From an uncultured Pseudomonadota bacterium (GTDB taxonomy: Bacteria; SAR324; NAC60-12): DNA of 16,001 nucleotides. Below, piece after piece: positions 3 to 16,001 of the stretch; position 1 is the first letter of the stretch; each line of letters begins with the position of its first letter. The DNA lies in assembly GCA_913020725.1 (NCBI GenBank), contig CAJWCD010000086.1:1-16001 (forward strand). Direction: 5' to 3'. Both the position numbers and the translations under genes were made by a program. Below the pieces are notes generated by a model that saw only the letters and a list, made by a program, of their open reading frames with translations, did no database searches and was not told the origin of the DNA.

Positions 3-719
3 TTTGTGGTTGAATTTCTGGAACATTTAACTGAAAAAATAATCGTTCCCTGGTGTGAACGGTTAGTGCAAAAATTTCCAAATATCTGGCTCGATCTTTC
101 TGATGCTTCGGGCTCTCCTTTATTCATCAGTCCAAATATTGTTCAACAAATCGCGGCTTGTCCTGTACTTCGAATGATTCAGGAATTTCCTTGGGGAAAT
201 CGGGTGTTTGTTGCCAACTATCGAGGTGATATGACTACAAAAACCTCCCACGTGGAAGGGCGTCGGGGAACAGGGCGGCGCAATCGTCGAGGACAACAAA
301 CCGATCCAGAAACAAGCAGCACTCAATCCTCAACTAATGCTCTGAACGAATTGATTGATTTCAAACTGAGTCTCTGTACTGAGTTCATCATCAAACTGGA
401 TGCCGACCAATCTCCGATTACCGTCTACGTGGAACAGGCACTTGACCGCCAAAAACCGCTCTATCTTGGCATCGGCGCAACCCGCATTGACCACAACAGC
501 ATTGCAAATCGTGAAGTCGCAAAAAAAGAACTTGAAAAGCTGGCAACTGAATCCGCAAAGGGAATTAAAACCGTTTCCGAATTTCTCATCAAAAACGGAC
601 AACCACGCTCGAACCTTTCTTGGCCGGGGGATGTGTACATAGAAGACATCAATGCGGAATCCGAGTTTGGTTTGGTGAACACTATCATTGAGACGGTAGC
701 AAAACATGGAAAGGTATGA
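3..719 (+). CDS. Hypothetical protein, probably 5'-truncated by the window edge; weak resemblance to the C-terminal half of URO-D/MtaA-CmuA (uroporphyrinogen decarboxylase-like TIM barrel) proteins
   Basis: The frame is open back to the window start (GTG at 6, TTT at 3-5). 'FLEHLTEKIIVPW...LSDASGSPLFISPNIVQQIAACP' resembles the URO-D/MtaA 'D..aS..liSP..f.ef..Py' segment. The C-terminal 'WPGDVY...NTIIETVAKHG' resembles the family's 'spGc.i.....eNi.a.ve.v.kyG' ending. Family call is by eye only. Confidence 0.4.
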   Translation, partial: FVVEFLEHLTEKIIVPWCERLVQKFPNIWLDLSDASGSPLFISPNIVQQIAACPVLRMIQEFPWGNRVFVANYRGDMTTKTSHVEGRRGTGRRNRRGQQTDPETSSTQSSTNALNELIDFKLSLCTEFIIKLDADQSPITVYVEQALDRQKPLYLGIGATRIDHNSIANREVAKKELEKLATESAKGIKTVSEFLIKNGQPRSNLSWPGDVYIEDINAESEFGLVNTIIETVAKHGKV

Positions 720-4624: not shown

Positions 4625-5782
4625 ATGCAAGGCTACTTCTTCGATGCCGCCGACATTAACCTCTCGGAATTTACGGCACTCTGTTCACAGACGGTTCGCT
4701 TGGAAGACTATCGGTTTGCCGCAGAAATCCAACAGAAGCTAGTCGTCTATGAGGAGGATCGCATCCGGTCTGTGATCGGCACGCCGCAAGCCCGTGAGTT
4801 GAAAACGGAACTGCACCACTGTCTCAAGGAGGGGCCGGGAGTGTTCGCCATCCGTGGAGCGTGTCCGGACCTGAAGGCCGTTGATCGGGCAACGGAGGTC
4901 TTCCGGAAAATCATTGCGGAAGAAAAAGAACGCGTAGCACACCGGGGCGATCACTTTGCAAAGCCCGGAGACAATGAGCGCATTTGGAACGCTTTGCAGA
5001 AATTCTGCGAACGGGATCCAGAGGCATTCGTCGCCTACTACGACAACCCGGTGCTTTGCTTCGTGTCGGAGGCATGGTTGGGCCCGTCTTTCCAGATCAC
5101 TTCGCAAATCAATGTGGTCAAACCGGGGGGGCAAGCGCAAAACCCTCATCGGGATTACCATCTCGGATTTCAGGACGATGCCGTTGTTTCGCGTTTTCCG
5201 CTTTCTGTGCAGGTTGCGTCACAGTTTCTTACGCTTCAAGGGGCCGTGGCGCACACTGACATGAGTGTCGCGTCCGGACCGACGCTGCTGCTGCCGTTTT
5301 CCCAGCAATATCCATTGGGGTATCTGGCGTGGCGGAATCCGGAGTTCATCAAGTTTTTTCAGCAAAAGGCCGTGCAGTTTCCGTTAAACAAGGGCGATGC
5401 GGTGTTCTTCAGTCCGGCCCTGTTCCATGCGGCGGGAACCAACACGGAATCCGCAGACCGGGTTGCGAACCTCTTGCAGGTCTCCAGCGCCTTCGGCAAG
5501 GCGATGGAAACGGTGAACCGCCTCAAGATGACGAAGCTGGTCTATCCGGTCCTGCTGGCCAAGAAGCAGAACGGTCGGCTTCGATTCGACGAGCCGCGAA
5601 CTGTCGGGGCTTCCGTGACCGACGGCTACTCCTTTCCGACCAATCTTGATTCCGATCCGCCTATCGAAGGGTCCGCACCGGAAACCGTCCAGACTTTGCT
5701 TGAACGTGCGCTGAGTGAAGAATGGCCGGTTGAGCGTTTTCACCAGCATCTCAACGAAGCTGCGGAACGAAGACTTGCTTGA
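4625..5782 (+). CDS. Phytanoyl-CoA dioxygenase (PhyH)-family Fe(II)/2-oxoglutarate dioxygenase
   Basis: HxD motif in 'PGGQAQNPHRDYH' (His codon 5147). Distal His in 'GDAVFFSPALFHAAGTN' (codon 5426), followed by the Arg of 'ADR'. 'GPTLLLPFSQ' matches the PhyH G.l..lPgSH segment. Start is TTG 4622 or ATG 4625. Confidence 0.85.
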   Translation: MQGYFFDAADINLSEFTALCSQTVRLEDYRFAAEIQQKLVVYEEDRIRSVIGTPQARELKTELHHCLKEGPGVFAIRGACPDLKAVDRATEVFRKIIAEEKERVAHRGDHFAKPGDNERIWNALQKFCERDPEAFVAYYDNPVLCFVSEAWLGPSFQITSQINVVKPGGQAQNPHRDYHLGFQDDAVVSRFPLSVQVASQFLTLQGAVAHTDMSVASGPTLLLPFSQQYPLGYLAWRNPEFIKFFQQKAVQFPLNKGDAVFFSPALFHAAGTNTESADRVANLLQVSSAFGKAMETVNRLKMTKLVYPVLLAKKQNGRLRFDEPRTVGASVTDGYSFPTNLDSDPPIEGSAPETVQTLLERALSEEWPVERFHQHLNEAAERRLA

Positions 5783-5828
5783 ACCACACTCAAGATTCAC
5801 TGCGGTCCACTTGAAACACCCTGAAACC

Positions 5829-7757
5829 ATGCCCAGCACTTCCCGTCCGTTTGACCCCACCCGTGTTCTTGACCTCATCTGCATGGGGCGGGTGGCGGTG
5901 GATTTGTACGCCGAGCAGGTCTTCAGTCCGCTGGAAGATGCCCAGAGTTTCCGGAAGTACCTTGGCGGTTGCGCGGGCAACATCGCCGTAGGCACCTCCC
6001 GGCTGGGTTTGAAATCCGCGCTGTTCTCCTGCGTGGGAACTGACGATATGGGCAAGTTCCTGCGCAAGCAACTCCGGCACGAGGGTGTGGACACCACCTT
6101 GTTGCAGGACACGGACGACCACCTGACTGCCCTCGTCTTGCTTGGCGTCAGCCCGCCGGAGCGCTTCCCGTTGATCTTCTACCGTGAGAATTGCGCGGAC
6201 ATGCAGATCCAACCAGAACACGCCGATCCAGAGTATTTCAAGACCGCCAAAGCGCTGCAAATCACCGGAACCGGGCTTACCACTCCTGCAATGCGGGAGG
6301 CGAGTCGGCAGGCGGTCAAGGTCGCCAAGGAGTCCGGATGTGCCGTGATCCTCGACATTGATTATCGTCCGGTGTTGTGGGGTTTGACGGCAGCAGGGGA
6401 CGGAGAGTCGCGTTTTGTCGCGTCTGCAAGCGTCACAGGCGTACTGCAACCATTGCTGCCGGACCTCGACCTGATCATCGGCACCGAGGAGGAGGTGATG
6501 ATTGCCGGAGGGAAAGCAGCGTTGGAGGACTCCTTGGAGGCGATCCGGAAAATATCCGCAGCGACCATCGTCCTCAAGCGGGGAGCATTGGGCTGCGAGG
6601 TCTTCACTCCGGCAGCGGCTGAATCCATCAAAGCCCGTCCGTTTCCGATTGAGGTGCTGAACATCCTTGGGGCGGGAGATGCGTTTGCGTCCGGATTCCT
6701 GCGCGGCTGGCTGCGGGGTGAACGCCTCGAAACCTGCGCACTTTGGGGCAATGCCAACGGAGCCTTGACCGTGACTCGACATGGCTGTTCCCCTGCAATG
6801 GCCTCGTTTACGGAGTTGCAACATTTGATCGAAAATTTCGACCGAGACCCCAAGGTGCTTGCCAGCCCAAGCTTGTTGCGGTTGCACCAGCGCACCGTGC
6901 TGGGGATGCCCCGCAACCAACCCCTGAAAGTGCTGGCCTTCGATCACCGGAGGCTGTTTGAGGAGTCGTGTTCCTTGCAAGAAATTTCGACCACGCAAAT
7001 CAGCAAGTTCAAGCAGTTGGTGTTTGAGGGCTTCAAGCAGGTCAACAAAGAAAATCCGGAAGAAGCTCTGGCCTTGCTCGTGGATCCAGAATTTGGTGGT
7101 TCGATTCTTCAGGAATCCGCCTACGGAGGCTACCATGTGGGAATGCCCATCGAGCGTTCCGGATCGTTTCCTGTCGAGTGGCTGACGGAGAAGAATCTGT
7201 ACGAGTACCTTGTGCAGTGCCCCAGCACTTGGTTTGTGAAGGTGCTGTGGAATTACCACCCGCATTTGGAAGCAACACATAAGCTCGAACAACTGGCCCG
7301 GCTCCGGAAGTTGCAGTCGGTTTGTGACGCGCTGGAACGGCGTTTGATGCTGGAGATGATCCTGCCGGAGGGGCTGCGCAAGGATGGGGGCATGCTCGCG
7401 AAAGCTATCGAAGAGGTTTACGAACATCAGCTTTTCCCCCACTGGTGGAAGCTCAACCCCACCGACACTCAAGCGGAATGGGATCAGTTCACGGCAATGT
7501 TGGACCGTTACGATCCGGAAGTCGGGGTGATCGTGCTAGGAAACAATGCCCCGCTCAAGCAGTTCGAGCAGTGGTTCCGGATCGTCCGCAGCACCCCGCA
7601 CGCTTGCGGCTTTGCCATCGGACGCAGCATTTTCTGGGAGCCGTGGCTGGATTTTTCTTCCGGAACGGTGGAGGCTCAGGCAATTCCGGGATTGATCGCC
7701 GAACGCTATCAGCAGATGATTGATTTGTGGCAGCATTCCCAAACGCCTCCTGCTTGA
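5829..7757 (+). CDS. iolC: Bifunctional 5-dehydro-2-deoxygluconokinase (PfkB) with C-terminal DUF2090 aldolase-like domain
   Basis: 'LDLICMGRVAVDLY', 'FRKYLGGCAGNIAVGTSRLGL', 'LDIDYRPVLWGL' and the PfkB 'GAGDAF'. The C-domain has 'VLAFDHR', 'WWKL' and 'GFAIGRSIF'. ATG 5829 chosen because 5715 overlaps the PhyH gene. Confidence 0.93.
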   Translation: MPSTSRPFDPTRVLDLICMGRVAVDLYAEQVFSPLEDAQSFRKYLGGCAGNIAVGTSRLGLKSALFSCVGTDDMGKFLRKQLRHEGVDTTLLQDTDDHLTALVLLGVSPPERFPLIFYRENCADMQIQPEHADPEYFKTAKALQITGTGLTTPAMREASRQAVKVAKESGCAVILDIDYRPVLWGLTAAGDGESRFVASASVTGVLQPLLPDLDLIIGTEEEVMIAGGKAALEDSLEAIRKISAATIVLKRGALGCEVFTPAAAESIKARPFPIEVLNILGAGDAFASGFLRGWLRGERLETCALWGNANGALTVTRHGCSPAMASFTELQHLIENFDRDPKVLASPSLLRLHQRTVLGMPRNQPLKVLAFDHRRLFEESCSLQEISTTQISKFKQLVFEGFKQVNKENPEEALALLVDPEFGGSILQESAYGGYHVGMPIERSGSFPVEWLTEKNLYEYLVQCPSTWFVKVLWNYHPHLEATHKLEQLARLRKLQSVCDALERRLMLEMILPEGLRKDGGMLAKAIEEVYEHQLFPHWWKLNPTDTQAEWDQFTAMLDRYDPEVGVIVLGNNAPLKQFEQWFRIVRSTPHACGFAIGRSIFWEPWLDFSSGTVEAQAIPGLIAERYQQMIDLWQHSQTPPA

Positions 7758-7758
7758 G

Positions 7759-7778
7759 TTTGTTAACAAATGCGTTAA
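7759..7778. promoter_or_regulatory. Palindromic operator candidate of the downstream TA module
   Basis: TTTGTTAACAAA (7759-7770) overlaps TTAAC-N6-GTTAA (7763-7778), ending 1 nt before the toxin ATG at 7780. Confidence 0.6.
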
Positions 7779-7779
7779 T

Positions 7780-8114
7780 ATGAGGAAGTGGGAATTCACG
7801 TTTTACAGCAAGTAGCTTGAGGAGGAACTGCTCTCGCTTCCCAAGAGAGTACTTGCGCGGCGGCTGCGTTTTCTGGACCGGATGCAAATCTATGCTCCTG
7901 ACTTGGGAATGCCTCACACCCGTGCAATGGGAGACGGGTTGTTTGAGTTGCAAATCAAGTCACAGGAAAGAGCCGAGCGTATTTTTTACTGCACATTGTC
8001 AGGAAAGCGTGTGCTGCTACTGCACCACTTCGCCAAAAAACACAGAAAACACTGATGCGTGAATTAACAAAAGCCCGGCAGCGTTTGAAGGAGGCCAAAA
8101 ATGCTGACGTCTGA
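7780..8114 (+). pseudogene. Disrupted RelE/ParE-superfamily toxin (Gp49/DUF891, HigB-like)
   Basis: Manual translation: MRKWEFTFYSK*LEEELLSLPKRVLARRLRFLDRMQIYAPDLGMPHTRAMGDGLFELQIKSQERAERIFYCTLSGKRVLLLHHFAKK / TQKTLMRELTKARQRLKEAKNADV*. In-frame TAG at 7813-7815. One added A in the A6 run (8035-8040) restores the family 'KKTQKT' motif. Confidence 0.88.
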
Positions 8115-8399
8115 GAAATTCAAGGAAAAGGCACTCTCCGATCCAGAAGTCAGAGCCGAGTCGAGGCGCTGGAACCCGAGTTCGCGCTCTTTGACGAACT
8201 GCTCAGGGCACGGAAGCGGGCGGGATTGACGCAGGCGAAAATCGCCGAGCGCATGGACACCAAGCCTCCGGCGGTGGCACGACTGGAATCCGGGGGCGGC
8301 AGTGCCCGCCATTCTCCTTCGGTGGCGACGCTGCGACGTTAGGCACAGGCGGTCGGGTGCAATTTTGAAATCCGGCTGGTGGCGCAAGAATCCCATTGA
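8101..8399 (+). pseudogene. Disrupted XRE-family HTH antitoxin (HigA-like)
   Basis: AAGGAGG RBS before ATG 8101. Manual translation: MLTSEKFKEKALSDPEVRAE / EALEPEFALFDELLRARKRAGLTQAKIAERMDTKPPAVARLESGGGSARHSPSVATLRR*AQAVGCNFEIRLVAQESH*. One-nt deletion near 8161-8162 and TAG at 8340-8342. Overlaps the toxin's 3' end. Confidence 0.88.
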
Positions 8400-8428
8400 C
8401 GGCCTAATCTGTAAAAATAGAGAATCGT

Positions 8429-9235
8429 ATGTCAAAACTTTTGAGTCGCCACAGCACTCCGGACGATTCCGGGAAGACGCAGCACATCACCCCCGCCTCG
8501 GCAGGCTGGAAGCACGTTGGCTTTGAAGTCTATCACCTGCAATCCGGACAGTCGCTTTCCCAACAGTCCGGAGAGCAGGAGGTGTGTTTGGTGCTAATGT
8601 CCGGCAAGGCCGATGTCACGACACGAAACCAGTCGTGGAGCAACTTGGGCGAGCGCATGAGTGTGTTTGAGGACAAAGCAGCATACGCGGTTTATGTCTC
8701 AAACAGTGACGAGTACACCGTGACGGCAACCACCGCTTTGGAATTAGCGATCTGTCGCGCTCCCGGATTTGGCAATCACGCAGCCCGTCTGCTTCATCCG
8801 GAAACGATGAGCCGCGAAACTCGCGGGACGGGAACCAACACCCGCCATGTCTGCAACATCCTTCCGGAAACCGCAGCGGCAGACAGCTTGCTGGTGGTTG
8901 AGGTGATCACACCAAACGGCAACTGGTCCAGCTATCCCCCGCACAAACACGATGCGGACAACCTTCCGGAAGAATCCTTTTTGGAAGAAACCTACTACCA
9001 CCGCCTCAATCCACCGCAGGGCTTCGCCTTCCAGCGGGTGTACACGGATGATGGTTCACTGGACGAAACCATGTCTGTCCACGATGGTGATGTGGTGATG
9101 GTGCCTCGTGGCTATCATCCGGTGGGGGCACCGCACGGCTACGACTTGTACTACCTCAATGTGATGGCCGGACCGAAGCGAGTGTGGCATTTCAAGAATG
9201 CTCCGGAACACGAATGGATCGTGAACCAGCAATAA
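8429..9235 (+). CDS. iolB: 5-deoxy-glucuronate isomerase
   Basis: 'ITPASAGW', 'GNWSSYPPHKHD', 'LEETYYHRLNPPQGF', 'VPRGYHPV' and 'YYLNVMAGP' (KduI/IolB family); iol context. Confidence 0.96.
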   Translation: MSKLLSRHSTPDDSGKTQHITPASAGWKHVGFEVYHLQSGQSLSQQSGEQEVCLVLMSGKADVTTRNQSWSNLGERMSVFEDKAAYAVYVSNSDEYTVTATTALELAICRAPGFGNHAARLLHPETMSRETRGTGTNTRHVCNILPETAAADSLLVVEVITPNGNWSSYPPHKHDADNLPEESFLEETYYHRLNPPQGFAFQRVYTDDGSLDETMSVHDGDVVMVPRGYHPVGAPHGYDLYYLNVMAGPKRVWHFKNAPEHEWIVNQQ

Positions 9236-9270
9236 AATAGCAAAAGCATGACATCACTCAAAAAGAGGAA

Positions 9271-11136
9271 ATGGGAACAGCGCGACTGACCATGGCTCAA
9301 GCCCTGCTGCGTTTTTTGGACGCGCAGTATGTGGAACTCGACGACACGGAACACAAATTCGTGCAAGGGGTGCTGGGCATTTTCGGACACGGCAATGTCA
9401 CGGGTTTGGGCGAAGCCTTGGAGTACGGAGGCACGAGTCTGCGCTTCATCCAGGGCTTCAACGAGCAAGGGCTGGTGCATATCGCCACAGCCTACGCAAA
9501 GCAGAAGAATCGGCTGGGCATCTACGCCTGCACCAGCTCAATCGGCCCTGGGGCGACCAACATGATCACCGGGGCGGCCACGGCGACGGTCAACCGCATT
9601 CCGGTGCTGTTGCTCCCCGGAGACACCTTTGCCTCTCGCCAACCTGATCCAGTGCTTCAGCAGATTGAAACGCCGTGGGATCACACGATCAACGCCAACA
9701 TTGCCTTCAAGTCGGTCAGCCGCTACTGGGATCGCATCGAACGTCCGGAACAGTTGATGATCGCCGGGCTGAACGCGATGCGTGTCTTGACCGATCCAGT
9801 GGAAACTGGCGCAGTCACACTCTGCCTGCCGCAGGACACTCAGGCTGAGGCCTATGACTATCCGGCTTCCTTCTTCGAGAAGCGTGTCTGGCACCTTGAT
9901 CGCCGACCGTTGCCTGCGCGGCAGCTTGCTGAGGCGGTGGGAATTTTGCGAAATGCCAAGCGGCCGCTGATCGTTGCTGGAGGTGGGGTACATTACTCGC
10001 TGGCGGCAGAAACCCTCCAGAAATTCGCAGCGACTTGCGGAATTCCGGTGAGCGAAACTCAGGCTGGTAAGAGCGCGATGAGTTGGAAGGACGCGATGGG
10101 CGTGGGTGGACTGGGTGTCACCGGAACCTCGGCGGCGAACCTGTTGGCCCAAGACGCGGATGTGGTGCTAGCCATCGGTTCGCGTTTGCAGGATTTCACC
10201 ACAGCGTCCAAGCAGGTGTTTGCACCGGATGTGAAACTGCTGCACCTCAACGTCAGCAGCTACGACGGACAAAAACTGGACGGCCTCAGCTTGCAGGCCG
10301 ATGCCAAGCTTGGATTGGAAAGTCTGAGCGTGGCACTTCAGAATACTGGATACCAAACCGAGGCCTCCTACCGCGAGCGCGTGGCCCAGTTGCAAGCCGA
10401 CTGGAACGCCGAGGTGGATCGGCTCTACGCGCTGACCTCCGCAGCGGGCAACGTGCAGACGAACATCGTTGGCACTCTCAACGAATTCATGGCTCCGGAG
10501 GATGTCATTCTTTGTGCAGCGGGTAGCCTGCCGGGAGACTTGCACCGGGTCTGGCGCTCAGAACTCCCAAAGACCTACCACATGGAGTACGGATATTCCT
10601 GCATGGGTTACGAAGTCGCAGGAGCACTGGGTGCAAAGCTGGCGATGGATGAGGGCGAGGTTTATGCGATTGTCGGAGATGGTAGCTACCTGATGCTTCA
10701 CTCTGAAATCCTCACCAGCCTCAAGGAGCGCACCAAGATCACCGTGGTGCTGCTCGACAACTCCGGCTACCAATGCATCAAGAACCTGCAAATGGCACAC
10801 GGCAGTGTCGGTTTCGGCAACGAGTTCCGTTTCCGGGAGACCACAACGGATCGCCTGACCGGAGACATCACCCCCGTGGACTTCAAGAAGTATGCGGAAG
10901 CCCTCGGCGTGAATGCCCTCCACGCCGCCAATGCCGATGAACTCCGGAATGCTTTGGAAGCAGCCAAGCGCGAGCCGACGACCACCTTGATCGAGGTCAA
11001 AGTGCTACCCGGCACCATGAGCGATGGCTACCACGCCTGGTGGCGTGTCGGCATTCCGGAGGTCTCCAACTGTGAGGCGACGGTCAAGTCCAGCGCAGCT
11101 ATGCAGGAGGAAGTCTGCAAGGCGCGGGCGTACTGA
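9271..11136 (+). CDS. iolD: 3D-(3,5/4)-trihydroxycyclohexane-1,2-dione acylhydrolase (ThDP-dependent)
   Basis: 'RLTMAQAL', 'GIFGHGNV', 'TSSIGPGATNM', 'PDPVLQQIE', 'YHMEYGYSCMGYE' and the ThDP motif 'GDGSYLM...LDNSGY'. GAGG precedes the start. Confidence 0.96.
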   Translation: MGTARLTMAQALLRFLDAQYVELDDTEHKFVQGVLGIFGHGNVTGLGEALEYGGTSLRFIQGFNEQGLVHIATAYAKQKNRLGIYACTSSIGPGATNMITGAATATVNRIPVLLLPGDTFASRQPDPVLQQIETPWDHTINANIAFKSVSRYWDRIERPEQLMIAGLNAMRVLTDPVETGAVTLCLPQDTQAEAYDYPASFFEKRVWHLDRRPLPARQLAEAVGILRNAKRPLIVAGGGVHYSLAAETLQKFAATCGIPVSETQAGKSAMSWKDAMGVGGLGVTGTSAANLLAQDADVVLAIGSRLQDFTTASKQVFAPDVKLLHLNVSSYDGQKLDGLSLQADAKLGLESLSVALQNTGYQTEASYRERVAQLQADWNAEVDRLYALTSAAGNVQTNIVGTLNEFMAPEDVILCAAGSLPGDLHRVWRSELPKTYHMEYGYSCMGYEVAGALGAKLAMDEGEVYAIVGDGSYLMLHSEILTSLKERTKITVVLLDNSGYQCIKNLQMAHGSVGFGNEFRFRETTTDRLTGDITPVDFKKYAEALGVNALHAANADELRNALEAAKREPTTTLIEVKVLPGTMSDGYHAWWRVGIPEVSNCEATVKSSAAMQEEVCKARAY

Positions 11137-11145
11137 AGATGAAAG

Positions 11146-11350
11146 TCAGGCGGTGAGGGGTTGGATCCCCTCAAGCTCTTCTTGCAACTCCAAGCGGGTC
11201 TTACGCTATCCGCAAGTCCTTCAGCGATGCAGAGACGTCAAGCATCTCCAGCTTGTCCAAGACACGTTGCTGAATCGAAGGCGGAAACTTGCGGGAAAAT
11301 CGACCTTCCCAAATTTTTGCGATTTCTTTGCAGCTAAAGCTTTGGATCCT
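11146..11350 (-). pseudogene. Collapsed higBA remnant: HigB toxin N-terminal half joined to a probable HigA C-terminal tail
   Basis: Minus strand 11350-11201 reads (AGG)IQSFSCKEIAKIWEGRFSRKFPPSIQQRVLDKLEMLDVSASLKDLRIA*, matching the HigB 'MIxSF..K....w.g...rk.P..iq.....KL..L......DLR' pattern, with AGG where ATG is expected. In another frame, 11205-11146 reads RKTRLELQEELEGIQPLTA*, resembling HigA/VapI C-termini (weaker call). Confidence 0.75.
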
Positions 11351-11430
11351 GGGAGGTTAGCATCTTCAGGATGCAGTACTATCTAAACACTAGACTAAAC
11401 TCAAAAAACTCAACTTGCTTGCTTGGCTTT

Positions 11431-12324
11431 ATGTTCACACCCAACACCATCCAACTCTCGATCGCACCCATCGCTTGGACCAACGATGATCTTCCGGAAC
11501 TTGGTGGGCATGTGCCCTTTGAGCAGTGCATTGACGAAATGGCAACCGCCGGGTTTGCTGGAAGCGAAATCGGCAACAAGTACCCCAAGGATCCGGTGGT
11601 CCTCAAGCCCGCCTTGGAGCAGCGCGGACTGCAAATCTCCTCGGCGTGGTTCAGCACCTTCTTCAGCGAGAACGGGCGTAAGGATGAGACGGTCAGCGCC
11701 TTCATCGACCAGATGAACTTCCTCAAGGCGATGGGGGCGAAGGTCGTTAATGTCTGCGAGTGCGGACACTGTGTGCAGGGTACGCCGGAGCACGTTTTTG
11801 ATCGCCCCTCGTACACGGACCAGCAGTGGGTGCGCGTTGCGAACGGCCTGAATCGCCTCGGGGGAATTGCCTGCGACAACGGCATGGTCATCGCCTACCA
11901 CTACCACATGGGTACGATGGTGCAGAGCGCCGCAGAAACGGACCGGATCATGGGCATGACCGACCCGGACATGGTGCATCTGCTCGTTGATACCGGACAC
12001 GCCCACTATGCCGGAAACGACCCGCTGGCTCTCGTCAAGCAATACGGCCCGCGCATCCGCAACGTCCACCTCAAGGACATCCGGCAGGAGGTGCTGGATG
12101 TGGTGCATTCGCAGAAAATGAATTTCCTCGACTCGGTGAAGGCGGGGGTGTTCACGGTTCCGGGAGACGGCTGCATCGACTTCGATCGGATCTTCCAGGC
12201 GCTGGCCGACGCGGGCTACCAGGGCTGGTTTGTTGTGGAAGCCGAACAAGATCCGGACAAGGCCAATCCGCTGGACTATGCAAAGATGGCCCGGACCTTC
12301 ATTCGTGAACATGCGGGGATCTGA
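11431..12324 (+). CDS. iolE: myo-inosose-2 dehydratase
   Basis: 'IAPIAWTNDDLPELGG', 'GSEIGNKYP', 'YHYHMGT', 'LLVDTGH', 'VHLKDIR', 'FTVPGDG' and 'VVEAEQDP'. ATG 11431 chosen over 11371 because recognisable similarity begins just after it. Confidence 0.95.
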   Translation: MFTPNTIQLSIAPIAWTNDDLPELGGHVPFEQCIDEMATAGFAGSEIGNKYPKDPVVLKPALEQRGLQISSAWFSTFFSENGRKDETVSAFIDQMNFLKAMGAKVVNVCECGHCVQGTPEHVFDRPSYTDQQWVRVANGLNRLGGIACDNGMVIAYHYHMGTMVQSAAETDRIMGMTDPDMVHLLVDTGHAHYAGNDPLALVKQYGPRIRNVHLKDIRQEVLDVVHSQKMNFLDSVKAGVFTVPGDGCIDFDRIFQALADAGYQGWFVVEAEQDPDKANPLDYAKMARTFIREHAGI

Positions 12325-13496
12325 TGCGGAACCGATTCAGCAACAAGCCTTTACTGCGCTACGGCATGGTCGGCGGTGGCGCGACCAGCCAGATCGGCGA
12401 CAGCCACCGCATCGCCCTGCGCTGGGACAGCTACTATGACCTCGTGGCCGGAGCCTTTGACGTGGACGCGGAGCGCGGGCGGCAGTTCGGTGCATCCCTC
12501 GGCTTGGCTTCCGACCGTTGCTATGCGGATTACCAACAGATGGTAGCGGCAGAATCCGCCCGTGAGGACGGCATTGACGTGGTGGGCGTGATGACCCCGA
12601 ACAGCACCCACTACGCGATCGCCAAGGCGTTCATCGAGGCAGGATTCAACCTCATTCTGGAAAAGCCGATCACCACGACCACTGAAGATGCACTCGACCT
12701 GATCCGGCTGGCTCGGGAGAAGGACGTGCTCTGCGCCTCGATGTACGGCTACAGCGGCTACCCGATGGTGCGGCAGGCGCGGGCGCTGGTGGCCAACGGC
12801 GATCTCGGAGAGATCACCGTGGTCCAGACCGAGTTCGCCCACGGCAACTACGCCACCGCCGTCGAGCAGCACAGCGAAGGTGCCGCGTGGCGCAACGATC
12901 CCAAAACCTCTGGAGGCACCTTTGTGCTGGGTGACGTGGGCACCCACGCCCTGCATCTGGCGACGTTCATCACCGGACAGCAGGTTCGCGAACTCTCCAC
13001 CGACCGCCAGAGCTTCGTTTCCGGACGGGTGCTGGAGGACAACGCGCATGTGCTGCTGCGTTTTGAAAAGGGCGCGGCGGGCTTCCTTTGGGCCAGTGGC
13101 GTGGCGGTTGGACACCGGCATGGACTGGCCATCCGGGTTTACGGCACCAAGGCCGGAATTGCATGGGATCAGGAACACCCGAACCAACTGCACTACGCTC
13201 CCTTGGGACAGACCCCACGCACCCTGGAATTGGACTCCCCGGAACTCCTGCCTCCCGCCCAGCGCGTGTTGCGGGTGATGCCCGGCCATCCGGAAGGCTA
13301 CTTCGAGGCGTTCGTCAACGTCTATTCGGACTTCGCGGAGAGCCTCCTCGCCAAGCGTTCCGGAGCCGCCCCCGATCTGTTGTGCCTCGATTATCCCACG
13401 CTGGAGGACGGAGCGCACGGGGTCAAGTTCCTCGAAGCGTGTGTGGAGTCTGCCAATTACAACGGGCGCTGGTGCAGTGCCGAACTGGCATTGTAG
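12324..13496 (+). CDS. Gfo/Idh/MocA-family NAD(P)-dependent oxidoreductase, probable inositol/cyclitol dehydrogenase
   Basis: Rossmann start 'YGMVGGGATSQIG', 'TPNSTH', 'LEKP', catalytic 'DVGTH', and 'GHPEGY'. TGATG coupling to iolE. Confidence 0.88.
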   Translation: MRNRFSNKPLLRYGMVGGGATSQIGDSHRIALRWDSYYDLVAGAFDVDAERGRQFGASLGLASDRCYADYQQMVAAESAREDGIDVVGVMTPNSTHYAIAKAFIEAGFNLILEKPITTTTEDALDLIRLAREKDVLCASMYGYSGYPMVRQARALVANGDLGEITVVQTEFAHGNYATAVEQHSEGAAWRNDPKTSGGTFVLGDVGTHALHLATFITGQQVRELSTDRQSFVSGRVLEDNAHVLLRFEKGAAGFLWASGVAVGHRHGLAIRVYGTKAGIAWDQEHPNQLHYAPLGQTPRTLELDSPELLPPAQRVLRVMPGHPEGYFEAFVNVYSDFAESLLAKRSGAAPDLLCLDYPTLEDGAHGVKFLEACVESANYNGRWCSAELAL

Positions 13497-13513
13497 GGCA
13501 TCTTGAAATTAAG

Positions 13514-13544
13514 TTGAAATTGTACACAGATAGGTGTACGATTT
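13514..13544 (+). promoter_or_regulatory. hicAB promoter with overlapping inverted-repeat operator
   Basis: TTGAAA (13514-13519), 17 nt, TACGAT (13537-13542). The palindrome AAAT(T)GTACAC-N6-GTGTAC(G)ATTT (13517-13544) spans the spacer and -10. Predicted +1 falls at or next to the hicA ATG. Confidence 0.7.
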
Positions 13545-13547
13545 GCC

Positions 13548-13724
13548 ATGAAACGACGCGAACTCGAGCAAGCCCTTCGTAAACTTGGCTGGGAGTTCCT
13601 ACGCCACGGTGGTAGACATGATGTATGGACCGATGGCGAGCGTCAGGAAGCGATACCGCGCCATTCGGAGATCAGCGAGAGGTTGGCAAAGGCGATTCTG
13701 CGACGAGCGAAAAGGAAAAACTAG
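13548..13724 (+). CDS. hicA: HicA-family toxin (mRNA interferase), 58 aa; absent from the ORF track
   Basis: MKRRELEQALRKLGWEFLRHGGRHDVWTDGERQEAIPRHSEISERLAKAILRRAKRKN*: basic, with 'L...GW...R.GG.H' carrying the catalytic His and 'iPrH.ei...la..Il'. Confidence 0.92.
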   Translation: MKRRELEQALRKLGWEFLRHGGRHDVWTDGERQEAIPRHSEISERLAKAILRRAKRKN

Positions 13725-13726
13725 CG

Positions 13727-14146
13727 ATGCGATTTTCAGGAAAGGTGTACAAGGAGGGCAAATTTTGGCTGGCGGAAATTCCTGTGCTGGACTTGATGAC
13801 CCAGGGCCACACCCGCAAGGAAGCCTTCGTGATGGTTTCGGACTTGCTTGAAACCTTGGTGAATCGTCCCGAGTTTTCGGTGCGGGTTCATCCAGACAGG
13901 CACGGAAATTTTGAAGTCAGTTCATCTGACGCCCGAAGCCTGATCTCGCTTCTACTAAGACGGCAACGGGAGCAGAGCGGTTTATCGCTGGCAGAAGCCG
14001 CCGAACGTTTAGGGGCCAAGTCGCGCAATGCCTATGCTCGCTACGAGCAGGGGAGGTCGATTCCAAGCGTGGAAAAACTCTCCGAATTGCTCCGGGCGGT
14101 GTCTTCCGGTAGAGATTTCATCCTTCAGCAGAGCGCAGTCAGCTAA
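13727..14146 (+). CDS. hicB: HicB-family antitoxin with C-terminal XRE HTH, 139 aa
   Basis: N-domain 'KEGKFWLAEIPVLDLMTQGHTRKEA' fits the HicB 'w.a..P.l...tqG.t.eEA' pattern. C-domain 'RRQREQSGLSLAEAAERLG...YARYEQGRSIPSVEKL' is an HTH_XRE. Starts 2 nt after the hicA stop, with AAGGA upstream. Confidence 0.9.
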   Translation: MRFSGKVYKEGKFWLAEIPVLDLMTQGHTRKEAFVMVSDLLETLVNRPEFSVRVHPDRHGNFEVSSSDARSLISLLLRRQREQSGLSLAEAAERLGAKSRNAYARYEQGRSIPSVEKLSELLRAVSSGRDFILQQSAVS

Positions 14147-14165: not shown

Positions 14166-15899
14166 ATGACACGTCAAAGAAAAACCCCGGAGTCCCTGCG
14201 CAGCCTGCGTTGGTATGGCCCTGACGATCTGCGCTCGTTCGGGCATCGCTCCCGCACCAAGCAGATGGGGCTGCACCGCGACGAGTTCGTCGGCAAGCCG
14301 GTGATTGGCATCATCAACCCCTGGAACGAGATGAACACCTGCCACACGCACTTTCCGCAGCGGGTGCAGGATGTGAAACGTGGCATCTATCAGGTCGGGG
14401 GCTTTCCGGTGGAATTGCCTGCAATGTCGCTTGGCGAGCAGTTGATGAAGCCGACGGCGATGATGTACCGCAATTTCTTGGCGATGGAGGTCGAGGAGCT
14501 TTTGCGGAGCTACCCCATTGACGGCGCGGTGCTGATGGGTGGATGCGACAAAACCACGCCCGGCGTATTAATGGGAGCCATCAGCATGAATTTGCCCTGC
14601 ATCTACGTTCCCGGAGGAGCGATGCTGCGGGGGCATTGGCGGGGGAAAACCTTGGGAAGCGGCACCGATGTTTGGAAATATTGGGATGATCGGCGCTCCG
14701 GTAAGCTGGATGAAAAAAGTTGGTTTGAAATTGAAGACGGCATCGCCCGTTCTCCGGGAACCTGCATGACGATGGGCACGGCAGCCACCATGATGTCCAT
14801 CGCCGAGGCGCTGGGGATGTCGCTTCCGGGTGCCTCATCGATTCCGGCGGTGGACTCCAACCACAACCGCATGGCTTCGCTCAGCGGGCAGCGGGTGGTG
14901 GATCTGGTCTGGGAGGATGTCAAACCTACCGACATCCTCACGGAACAGGCGTTTGAGAATGCGATCATGGTGCTGATGGCCATTGGCGGTTCCACCAACG
15001 GCATCATCCACCTCACCGCCTTGGCACGGCGTGTTGGGGTTGGCTTGGACTTGGAAAGCTTCGACCGCATCTCCCAAGGCATTCCACTGCTGGCGAACAT
15101 CAAGCCCTCCGGCAGTTATGTGATGGAGGATTTTTACTACGCCGGAGGATTGCGGGCACTGATGCAGCAACTGAAGGAGCGGCTGCATTTAGAGGCGTTG
15201 ACGATCAACGGCAGAACCGTCCGGGAAAACCTGGATGGCGCGGAGGTCTTCAATCCGGACGTGATCCGTCTCTTTGACAACCCGGTCAAGCAGGCGGGTG
15301 GCACGGCGGTGTTGCATGGTAGCCTAGCTCCAAACGGTGCCGTGATCAAACCGACTGCCGCCGAGGAACGGCTCTGGAAACATCGTGGCCCAGCGCTTGT
15401 TTTCAAGGACATCCGCGACCTCAAGGCCCGTGTGGACTCCGAGGACTTGGACGTGACGGCGGACTCGGTGCTGGTGCTGCAACACGCCGGGCCGATTGGC
15501 GCTCCTGGAATGCCCGAGTGGGGGCAATTGCCCGTGCCGAAGAAGCTGCTCGACCAAGGAATCCGCGATATCGTCCGTATTTCTGATGCCCGCATGAGCG
15601 GTACGAGCTACGGCGCGTGCATCCTCCATGTCGCTCCGGAAGCCGCGCTGGGCGGCCCCTTAGCACTCGTTCGGGACGGCGATTTGATCGAGTTGGATGT
15701 CGAGGGGCGGCGGTTGGACCTGCTGGTTCCGGAAGCCGAACTGGAGGAGCGGCGCACACAATGGCAACCTCCGAAAGCTAAGGCTCACCGAGGCTACGCG
15801 GCGCTTTACACCCAGCACGTTAATCAGGCGCACGAAGGCTGCGACTTTGATTTCTTGCTGGGCACTCCCGGCGAAACTCCGGAACCGGATATTTTCTGA
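14166..15899 (+). CDS. IlvD/Edd-family [2Fe-2S] sugar-acid dehydratase, L-arabinonate dehydratase-like
   Basis: Cys ligands in 'NTCH', 'GGCDKT' and 'GTCMTMGTA'. Also 'GGSTN', 'GMPEWG', 'ISDARMSGT' and 'LHVAPE'. N-terminus 'LRSLRWYGPDDLRSFGHRSR' is typical of the aldonate dehydratase branch rather than IlvD. ATG 14166 chosen because 14028 lies inside hicB. Substrate not determinable from sequence. Confidence 0.85.
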   Translation: MTRQRKTPESLRSLRWYGPDDLRSFGHRSRTKQMGLHRDEFVGKPVIGIINPWNEMNTCHTHFPQRVQDVKRGIYQVGGFPVELPAMSLGEQLMKPTAMMYRNFLAMEVEELLRSYPIDGAVLMGGCDKTTPGVLMGAISMNLPCIYVPGGAMLRGHWRGKTLGSGTDVWKYWDDRRSGKLDEKSWFEIEDGIARSPGTCMTMGTAATMMSIAEALGMSLPGASSIPAVDSNHNRMASLSGQRVVDLVWEDVKPTDILTEQAFENAIMVLMAIGGSTNGIIHLTALARRVGVGLDLESFDRISQGIPLLANIKPSGSYVMEDFYYAGGLRALMQQLKERLHLEALTINGRTVRENLDGAEVFNPDVIRLFDNPVKQAGGTAVLHGSLAPNGAVIKPTAAEERLWKHRGPALVFKDIRDLKARVDSEDLDVTADSVLVLQHAGPIGAPGMPEWGQLPVPKKLLDQGIRDIVRISDARMSGTSYGACILHVAPEAALGGPLALVRDGDLIELDVEGRRLDLLVPEAELEERRTQWQPPKAKAHRGYAALYTQHVNQAHEGCDFDFLLGTPGETPEPDIF

Positions 15900-15903
15900 A
15901 TCA

Positions 15904-15986
15904 CTGATGTTACGCAGAATACGCGGATTCAACTCGTAAGTGCAACTCCCCGTCTGGTGAAGAGCGGCAAGCTGCGTTAGCATCAG
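15904..15986. repeat. 83-bp segment bounded by imperfect inverted repeats (MITE-like or long hairpin)
   Basis: Left CTGATGTTACGCAG (15904-15917). The reverse complement of the right end (15972-15986) is CTGATGCTAACGCAG. Confidence 0.45.
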
Positions 15987-16001
15987 AGCCTTTCAAACCG
16001 A

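Follow-up and report, generated by a model that had tools for sequence, protein, structure and literature searches.

Three toxin-antitoxin modules occupy junctions of an inositol operon

The window analysed here is a stretch of 16,001 nucleotides from an uncultured SAR324 bacterium (GenBank assembly GCA_913020725.1, contig CAJWCD010000086.1) and comprises the entire contig C86 of its genome, referred to as G000 (3.45 Mb in 204 contigs, 93% complete). It carries an inositol catabolic (iol) gene cluster in which three stop/start gaps each hold a different type II toxin-antitoxin (TA) module. A Gp49/RelE-HigB-like toxin with an XRE antitoxin lies between iolC and iolB (TA1), half of a HigB toxin gene lies antisense between iolD and iolE (TA2), and hicAB lies between an oxidoreductase gene (oxr) and a dehydratase gene (dht) (TA3). 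Profile, tblastn and blastp searches identify all three, in agreement with the original prediction of three different TA pairs in this cluster. For comparison we used related genomes of the same family, among them the sister genome G001 and G002 of the same genus. The features of the modules are:

7754..7781, + strand: predicted TA1 promoter/operator, with a -35-like box overlapping the iolC stop, a palindromic operator (7763-7778) and a -10-like box (7776-7781); conserved in G001 and G006
7780..8114, + strand: Gp49/RelE-HigB-like toxin pseudogene (PF05973, E 2e-17, over cut-off)
8101..8399, + strand: XRE antitoxin pseudogene (HTH_3)
11146..11205, - strand: possible C-terminal tail of a HigA antitoxin, 19 codons (resemblance by eye)
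11204..11350, - strand: N-terminal half of a HigB toxin, antisense to the operon (PF05015, E 0.0014; tblastn 3e-10 to HigB of relatives)
13514..13544, + strand: predicted hicAB promoter (-35 at 13514, 17-nt spacer, -10 ending at 13542) with an operator of 11-bp arms; homologous stretch kept in G001
13548..13724, + strand: hicA toxin, open frame (PF07927, E 1e-10, over cut-off)
13727..14146, + strand: hicB antitoxin with C-terminal helix-turn-helix (HTH) domain, open frame (HTH_3; N-domain blastp 9e-8 to HicB of relatives)

The modules fit their gaps as tightly as had been proposed, with 9-80 bp of spare sequence on their flanks. A palindrome had also been claimed before each toxin start. This holds for TA3 and for TA1, whose operator motif precedes 22 of 52 homologous toxins (the TA1 arms are 5 bp long and were missed by a general repeat listing); at TA2 the 5-bp arms are no better than chance. 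The TA1 promoter was not picked by a generic promoter scan, which itself performed at chance (2 found, 2.1 expected).

The iolC/iolB module is broken in the window and variable among relatives

TA1 carries the four lesions that had been claimed for it: a stop in the toxin (7813-15), a toxin frameshift in an A-run near 8035-41, an antitoxin frameshift near 8161 and an antitoxin stop (8340-42). The two genes overlap by 14 nt. The counterpart in G001 is intact and its toxin matches the HigB toxin of PDB 6AF3 (E 1e-8). By its predicted products, TA1 in the window is the remnant of a Gp49/RelE-HigB-like plus XRE type II TA system.

The TA1 antitoxin subfamily occurs as a single copy in five of 45 family genomes, four of which, spanning three genera, carry it at iolC/iolB. 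Each of these four junctions is in a different state: both genes are broken in G000 and intact in G001, while the toxin is deleted in G006, where the antitoxin contains a stop, and in G029, where the antitoxin is open. Adjacent iolC and iolB genes are found without a TA1-like module in 17 of 20 relatives. Outside the family, none of 80 metagenome loci and none of 80 genome loci with relatives of the TA1 antitoxin are linked to iol genes. A single clade for the iolB or the iolC genes of the four carriers is rejected by the approximately unbiased test (p-AU 2e-9 and 3e-64, respectively), and recent spread as an iolC-TA-iolB block is therefore ruled out. TA1 at this site would be either ancestral, with many losses, or re-inserted by short tracts. 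An antitoxin tree of 75 columns groups G000, G001 and G006 weakly (88) and does not resolve G029; we do not use it as proof.

Identity between G000 and G001 varies along TA1. The operator region is 88% identical (and is also kept in G006), followed by the toxin at 50%, the antitoxin N-terminus at 49% and the HTH at 82%, compared with about 79-81% for the iol genes; segment boundaries in the alignment are uncertain by at most one base. Toxin type tracks the type of the antitoxin N-terminus in 45 of 56 homologous loci (rho 0.72; 24 of 80 loci were dropped and kin are not independent). This pattern suggests that the toxin and the antitoxin N-terminus have been exchanged together, as a specificity block, between a retained operator and a retained HTH.

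The spacing between operator and start codon differs from that of most homologues. Of 22 homologues with a strict operator, 15 have a spacing of 10-11 nt, compared with about 5 nt in G001 (L031 near 11290) and in G000 (window 7774-7785, measured to an AGG codon). A transcript from TA1's own promoter might skip the toxin start, in which case even the intact G001 toxin may be silent.

Two further junctions hold an antisense HigB half and an intact hicAB

TA2 had been described as an antisense, mostly deleted HigBA pair. The HigB part stands: its N-terminal half is recognizable by tblastn, with a PF05015 score below cut-off for the half that is left, and its start codon has been lost and reads AGG. 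The HigA part is no more than possible: the supposed tail has no significant match to a HigA profile built from relatives. The iolD/iolE junction is free of TA genes in all nine relatives with an orthologous junction, and in G001 it holds a hairpin element where G000 has TA2.

The hicAB pair is intact, as had been stated. Both frames are open, and the HicB N-domain matches a profile of relatives' HicB (E 0.0002) while the Pfam HicB models give no match. The oxr/dht junction is empty in G029 and G065; that of G063 was excluded because its dht match is a C-terminal fragment. In G001 other cargo sits between the hicAB promoter, which is retained, and a remnant of hicB, its last ~70 bp. As hicAB traces are kept in G001, the module is at least as old as the G000/G001 split. 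The G001 cargo (L031 4420-5800, minus strand), about 1.1 kb replacing the hicAB interior, has a hairpin directly before an open reading frame (ORF) resembling an NAD(P)-binding protein. We call this hairpin attC-like by what we take to be the attC consensus, and the cargo resembles an integron cassette.

Aligning the iol clusters of relatives thus yields empty or alternative alleles at all three junctions, which argues against an arrival of the modules together with the blocks from which the cluster was assembled. The three modules had further been read as a decay series. The most deleted of them, TA2, is absent from all nine relatives, and the intact hicAB is not the youngest; therefore, decay state does not track age.

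Metagenome contigs span the junctions and reveal segregating lesions

Thirteen seawater DNA runs contain 79-90% of the sequence words of the window, and eight of these were compared in detail; RNA runs contain a fraction of 0.10-0.29. Single contigs span iolC-TA1-iolB (runs X11 and X1), TA1-iolB-iolD-TA2 (X13), iolD-TA2-iolE (X2) and oxr-hicAB-dht (X4). These runs come from five studies, one of which could be the source of the assembly. Chimeric junctions, which would have disproved the original prediction, were not found, as independent contigs cross each of the three.

The TA1 lesions are not equally fixed in these populations. The toxin stop is unchanged in four of four runs, while the antitoxin stop is absent in all three runs that cover its position, and X7 lacks both antitoxin lesions. 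Length of the toxin A-run also varies, with one base fewer in two of these runs and one base more in X11. Because the toxin stop is fixed and the antitoxin lesions vary, the toxin appears to have died first and the antitoxin to be decaying now.

A hicAB-free allele is present in run X4. A contig at a depth of 32.7 joins oxr to dht without hicAB, next to a hicAB contig at a depth of 8.4 (58% of the run read). Relative to the window, the hicAB-free contig shows 108 differences over 630 nt of oxr (83% identical) and none over 585 nt of dht. This allele, one allele in one run, is best read as the footprint of an allelic replacement via the flanking genes. Depth also dips over oxr-hicAB in X13 and X11; no joining contig accompanies these dips and they are not counted as hicAB-free alleles. 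Separately, linked substitutions clustered in iolE (window 11487-11690) recur in four runs and suggest a second recombined allele beside TA2.

Junction inserts like those in iol occur across the whole genome

We took a census of TA genes in G000 using ten Pfam families and tblastn with the TA genes of relatives, on genes called by a crude caller of our own. The census gave 37 merged matches; removal of four lone or embedded HTH matches and merging of two neighbours on contig C71 left 32 loci, and three DUF433 matches bring the total to at least 35 TA loci or remnants. The PemK profile has no match in G000. Of the 32 loci, 21 lie between two confidently called genes, 16 of these 21 between co-directional genes, and nine have at most 120 bp on both sides. 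Host junctions, with flanking genes assigned by Pfam, include aceF/lpd, lutA/lutB, aminotransferase/holB, livG/livF and a paaK-like gene next to a molybdoenzyme gene.

Intra-operon insertion is hence not specific to the iol cluster, and contig C69 carries three TA loci as well. Random placement puts three TA loci into five consecutive junctions somewhere in the genome with p 0.018 for 32 loci, 0.049 for 45 and 0.11 for 60. Local clustering is mild, a slight excess at 32-45 loci, and not unique to iol. The four TA1 carriers have 18-38 summed matches to five TA families, compared with 0-7 in 12 non-carriers (16 of 21 genomes counted; kin are not independent). That the carriers are the TA-richest genomes points to a lineage-wide tolerance of junk rather than to local selection. 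The main inference of the original prediction is therefore too narrow: what sits in iol is one local portion of the junction inserts that are spread over the whole genome.

Other junctions show the same turnover. Judged from their translations, the modules at aceF/lpd and at lutA/lutB differ between G000 and G001, and in G001 the lpd gene has TA remains to either side. The aminotransferase/holB junction is empty in G001 and G002, with a gap of 5 bp, and the HigBA module at livG/livF is common to G000 and G001 and missing from an empty junction in G014. At paaK/hcr, where G000 has a TA module, G001 has a hairpin and G006 another small ORF. Ten of 17 relatives' loci at lutA/lutB are uninformative as lutA is not visible, and several zero gaps at aceF/lpd are possibly artefacts of domain cross-matching and were not counted.

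Individual loci add detail. Two BrnT remnants in G000, at C119:7257-7262 (L174) and C69:1992-1997 (L171), have their start codon in an ATGA shared with the stop of the host gene; the last codons of their hosts differ from the empty allele and no BrnT promoter of their own is evident. Translation of these TA genes would be coupled to that of the host operon. After a cysteine-desulfurase-like gene (L171 17281-18079, L238, L244), G001 has an open-frame BrnT match followed by BrnA, the G000 BrnT is cut by a HicBA insert, and G002 has the same arrangement with a further 160-bp deletion. This locus seems to record a nested history. The one-contig genome G008 (L408, L409, L415) contains repeated ABC (ATP-binding cassette) peptide-transporter-like operons alternating with different TA pairs, namely three BrnTA, a HicBA and a Gp49/XRE pair.

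Short hairpin or tandem-repeat elements also occupy TA-type junctions (L049 2395-2500 in G029; L031 7824-7933 and the L248 paaK/hcr gap in G001). We presume that they resemble repeats flanking four-helix-bundle and GxxExxY genes. The G001 and G029 elements are rare in G000, each with two to three short matches or none, and an entry route shared with hairpins is consequently not shown for G000.

The contig ends in an IS30-like element, and the modules show no mobile-element traces

In the window, iolC, iolB, iolD, iolE, oxr and dht are preceded by genes for PhyH and an ABC sugar transporter; the genes are named from Pfam, TIGR and NCBIfam profile matches:

5715..7757, + strand: iolC, 5-dehydro-2-deoxygluconokinase fused to DUF2090, start uncertain (PF00294 and PF09863; TIGR04382)
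8429..9235, + strand: iolB, 5-deoxy-glucuronate isomerase (TIGR04378)
9271..11136, + strand: iolD (TIGR04377)
11431..12324, + strand: iolE, myo-inosose-2 dehydratase (TIGR04379)
12324..13496, + strand: oxr, Gfo/Idh/MocA oxidoreductase (PF01408, PF02894; below the iolG cut-off)
14166..15899, + strand: dht, IlvD/Edd-family sugar-acid dehydratase (NF009559 over cut-off; L-arabinonate-type dehydratase)
15922..16001, + strand: end of a multicopy IS30-like element at which the contig breaks (49 blastn matches in the genome; HTH_38 beside the C10 copy)

The iolC kinase domain scores over the TIGR04382 cut-off, and the fused model NF047869 gives 579, short of its cut-off of 600. A 237-amino-acid ORF at window 6-719 has no Pfam or NCBIfam match in the profile search; its C-terminal part also lies directly 5' of iolC in G029.

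Transposases and integrases had been reported as absent from the vicinity. The window indeed contains no transposase ORF, though the insertion sequence (IS) end at 15922-16001 had been overlooked. We presume that this element belongs to the IS30 family. Many of its 49 copies in G000 lie at contig ends, and the C15 copy forms a head-to-head palindrome. G000 has 148 multicopy repeat regions, none within 1.7 kb of the three modules; the IS end lies 1.8 kb from hicB. Across the genome, a distance of at most 350 bp to a contig end or 100 bp to a multicopy repeat is found for nine of 32 TA loci, and 4 of 21 junction TA loci are at most 2 kb from a repeat, compared with 180 of 2007 junctions (p 0.11). 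At eight modules examined for target-site duplications, end repeats measure 5-6 nt, equal to random windows. No attC-like site was found at TA1-3 or at any of the 35 TA loci by a home-made heuristic tuned on the single G001 site, which a stricter version missed. One lone attC-like site lies outside called genes at G000 C21:6868-6924 (no integrase search was made). G000 contains comEC.

Origin and turnover of the junction modules

We consider it probable that the three unrelated modules in the iol stop/start gaps are selfish passengers, part of the genome-wide load: homologous recombination in flanking genes exchanges or removes them, and their toxin decays first. Entry of each module would trace back to foreign DNA that was captured, rarely and without a recombinase, in a lineage with comEC and many IS ends. 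Such capture is favoured because comEC is present and neither a target duplication nor an attC site nor an IS end was found at the three modules; it is nevertheless the weakest link, to which we give slightly less than even credence. The original prediction of repeated entry by an unexplained route survives to this extent, with a local density somewhat above random. Insertions that break genes would be purged and those in stop/start gaps would survive, and it is this survival of intergenic insertions only that would produce the tight fit. Losing an antitoxin before its toxin is costly, and this cost, together with self-repression at the operator, may maintain the modules. Turnover would then rely on homologous recombination, either in the flanking genes or inside the module, where operator and HTH would offer the homology by which the toxin and the toxin-binding N-terminus of the antitoxin are jointly swapped, and decay would begin with the toxin.

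Several observations weigh against this reading. Neither an entry event nor a donor was found; TA1 sits at one junction across three genera, which is long for a neutral passenger; and the nine of 32 loci near contig ends or repeats fit delivery by IS elements. Two contigs of less than 20 kb carry three loci each (p 0.0001-0.007), for which pure chance insertion is insufficient, and the census is limited to our own crude gene caller and ten Pfam families. X11, a run outside the four in which the toxin stop was read, lacks the toxin frameshift.

Transposons, IS composites or integron cassettes could instead have brought in the modules, with later trimming of the mobile parts, a stepwise model set out in the available part of PMC13617665, with later turnover as we propose. 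The abundance of multicopy repeats, the IS30-like end in the window and the loci near contig ends or repeats would fit such delivery, as would the attC-like hairpin before the cargo replacing hicAB in G001 and the hairpin elements of G001 at iolD/iolE and paaK/hcr, where G000 has TA modules. We find it unlikely all the same, given that attC-like sites are absent from all 35 loci, end repeats stay at background, repeat proximity is insignificant and the window's IS end is remote from hicB. Selection at the sites themselves is quite improbable. TA1 would then be kept, with its specificity swapped, for anti-addiction or anti-phage protection, or an orphan antitoxin would repress an internal promoter for iolB-iolD-iolE. 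The recurrence of one site in four genomes of three genera would suit this, as would an operator and HTH that outlast the swap or deletion of the toxin, and the open antitoxin beside a dead or deleted toxin in G029 and run X7. It is countered by the broken antitoxins of G000 and G006, the 17 of 20 relatives without TA1 and the TA richness of the carriers. Antitoxins of unrelated phyla are 76-79% identical to that of G001, and conservation alone shows no local role; PADLOC gives weak matches only (generic HTH models and one NsnC match, 2e-5, for the G001 toxin).

The original prediction had the modules serving in turn as addiction modules that stabilise a dispensable inositol island. Their occurrence in five consecutive junctions (p ~0.02-0.05) and the patchiness of the cluster (iolB matched in 24 of 36 family genomes, iolE in 27 of 44) speak for it, but we regard it as highly improbable. 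The iolB and iolC trees mostly follow genera, with the exception of g5, and most carriers of the cluster are TA-free; G002, of the same genus (89% complete), has no iolB or iolE match. The G+C content of the iol genes (0.56-0.64; TA segments 0.48-0.54) is not below the 0.567 of the whole genome. Like inserts, among the at least 35 loci, lie in aceF/lpd and before holB, genes that need no stabilising, hicAB was lost without loss of the operon in run X4, and TA systems do not conserve their neighbourhoods in the available part of PMC13617665. That chimeric junctions or sequencing errors were mistaken for lesions is hardly credible: the assembly is fragmented into 204 contigs, but runs of five studies span the junctions, G001 shares modules at two of the three sites and the toxin stop recurs in four of four runs.

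A further idea is that operon junctions in this family act as long-lived TA slots. The operator and HTH scaffold would be kept at iolC/iolB across genera while homologous recombination exchanges the toxin and the toxin-binding N-terminus of the antitoxin as a single specificity cassette. We see this as possible though doubtful; if true, it would constitute a recombinase-free route of TA turnover, driven by conflict with plasmids or phages, that could be watched in ocean metagenomes.

Comparison with known systems

TA1 and TA3 resemble HigB/RelE-family plus XRE (PDB 6AF3) and HicAB systems in their domain matches, toxin-first gene order and palindromic operator in the promoter. Unlike functional HigB/RelE members, TA1 and TA2 are pseudogenes here, with toxin identity assigned from sequence. 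A literature search found no paper on TA systems in iol clusters, on TA systems in this lineage or on a swap anchored by operator and HTH, within a reach that left out most subscription papers and supplements.

TA systems inserted within operons are mentioned in the accessible part of PMC6504116. A 2020 review (PMC7167474), as far as its accessible text goes, describes TA pairs in intercistronic gaps, with alternative modules or repetitive extragenic palindromic (REP) elements at one site, and leaves the mechanism of chromosomal integration unexplained. Its enterobacterial examples are mazEF in relA-mazG, parDE at relA-mazG in Salmonella, yafNO in dinB-yafP and ccdO157 versus REP at folA-apaH. 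Like the modules here, these have no functional link to the operon, are missing in other strains and can give way to different modules or palindromic elements at a given site. Here, in contrast, three sites lie in one operon of an uncultured marine lineage, and one site persists across genera with a swap of toxin and antitoxin N-terminus. How TA systems integrate into chromosomes, the question raised in that text, is not solved by this locus.

The accessible part of PMC5635113 describes hotspots that lack mobile elements and undergo recombination at their flanking genes. The iol locus is similar in that a cargo change is tied to a divergent flanking-gene allele (run X4) and comEC is present; it differs from what is described there in that the cargo is smaller than 1 kb and lies inside an operon, and the evidence here is one recombinant allele.

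In Photorhabdus, the available part of PMC13617665 reports TA systems clustered in small spots without conserved neighbours, toxin-first decay, regain at the same place and palindromes that can replace TA systems. The iol locus shares these traits. The Photorhabdus systems described there occur together with cointegrate-forming transposases and have been tested experimentally, whereas the operon-internal modules of the window have no transposase link and are known from sequence alone. Unlike in Photorhabdus, steps of decay are seen segregating in wild metagenomes here. The locus works like published chromosomal TA turnover, with ordinary module families and a general pattern already in print. 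For a marine species sampled so widely, it supplies a natural series of alleles at these same junctions, some filled or swapped, others decaying or empty. Because the lesions still segregate and an allele has been replaced together with a flanking gene, both the recombination route and toxin-first decay become testable in wild populations.

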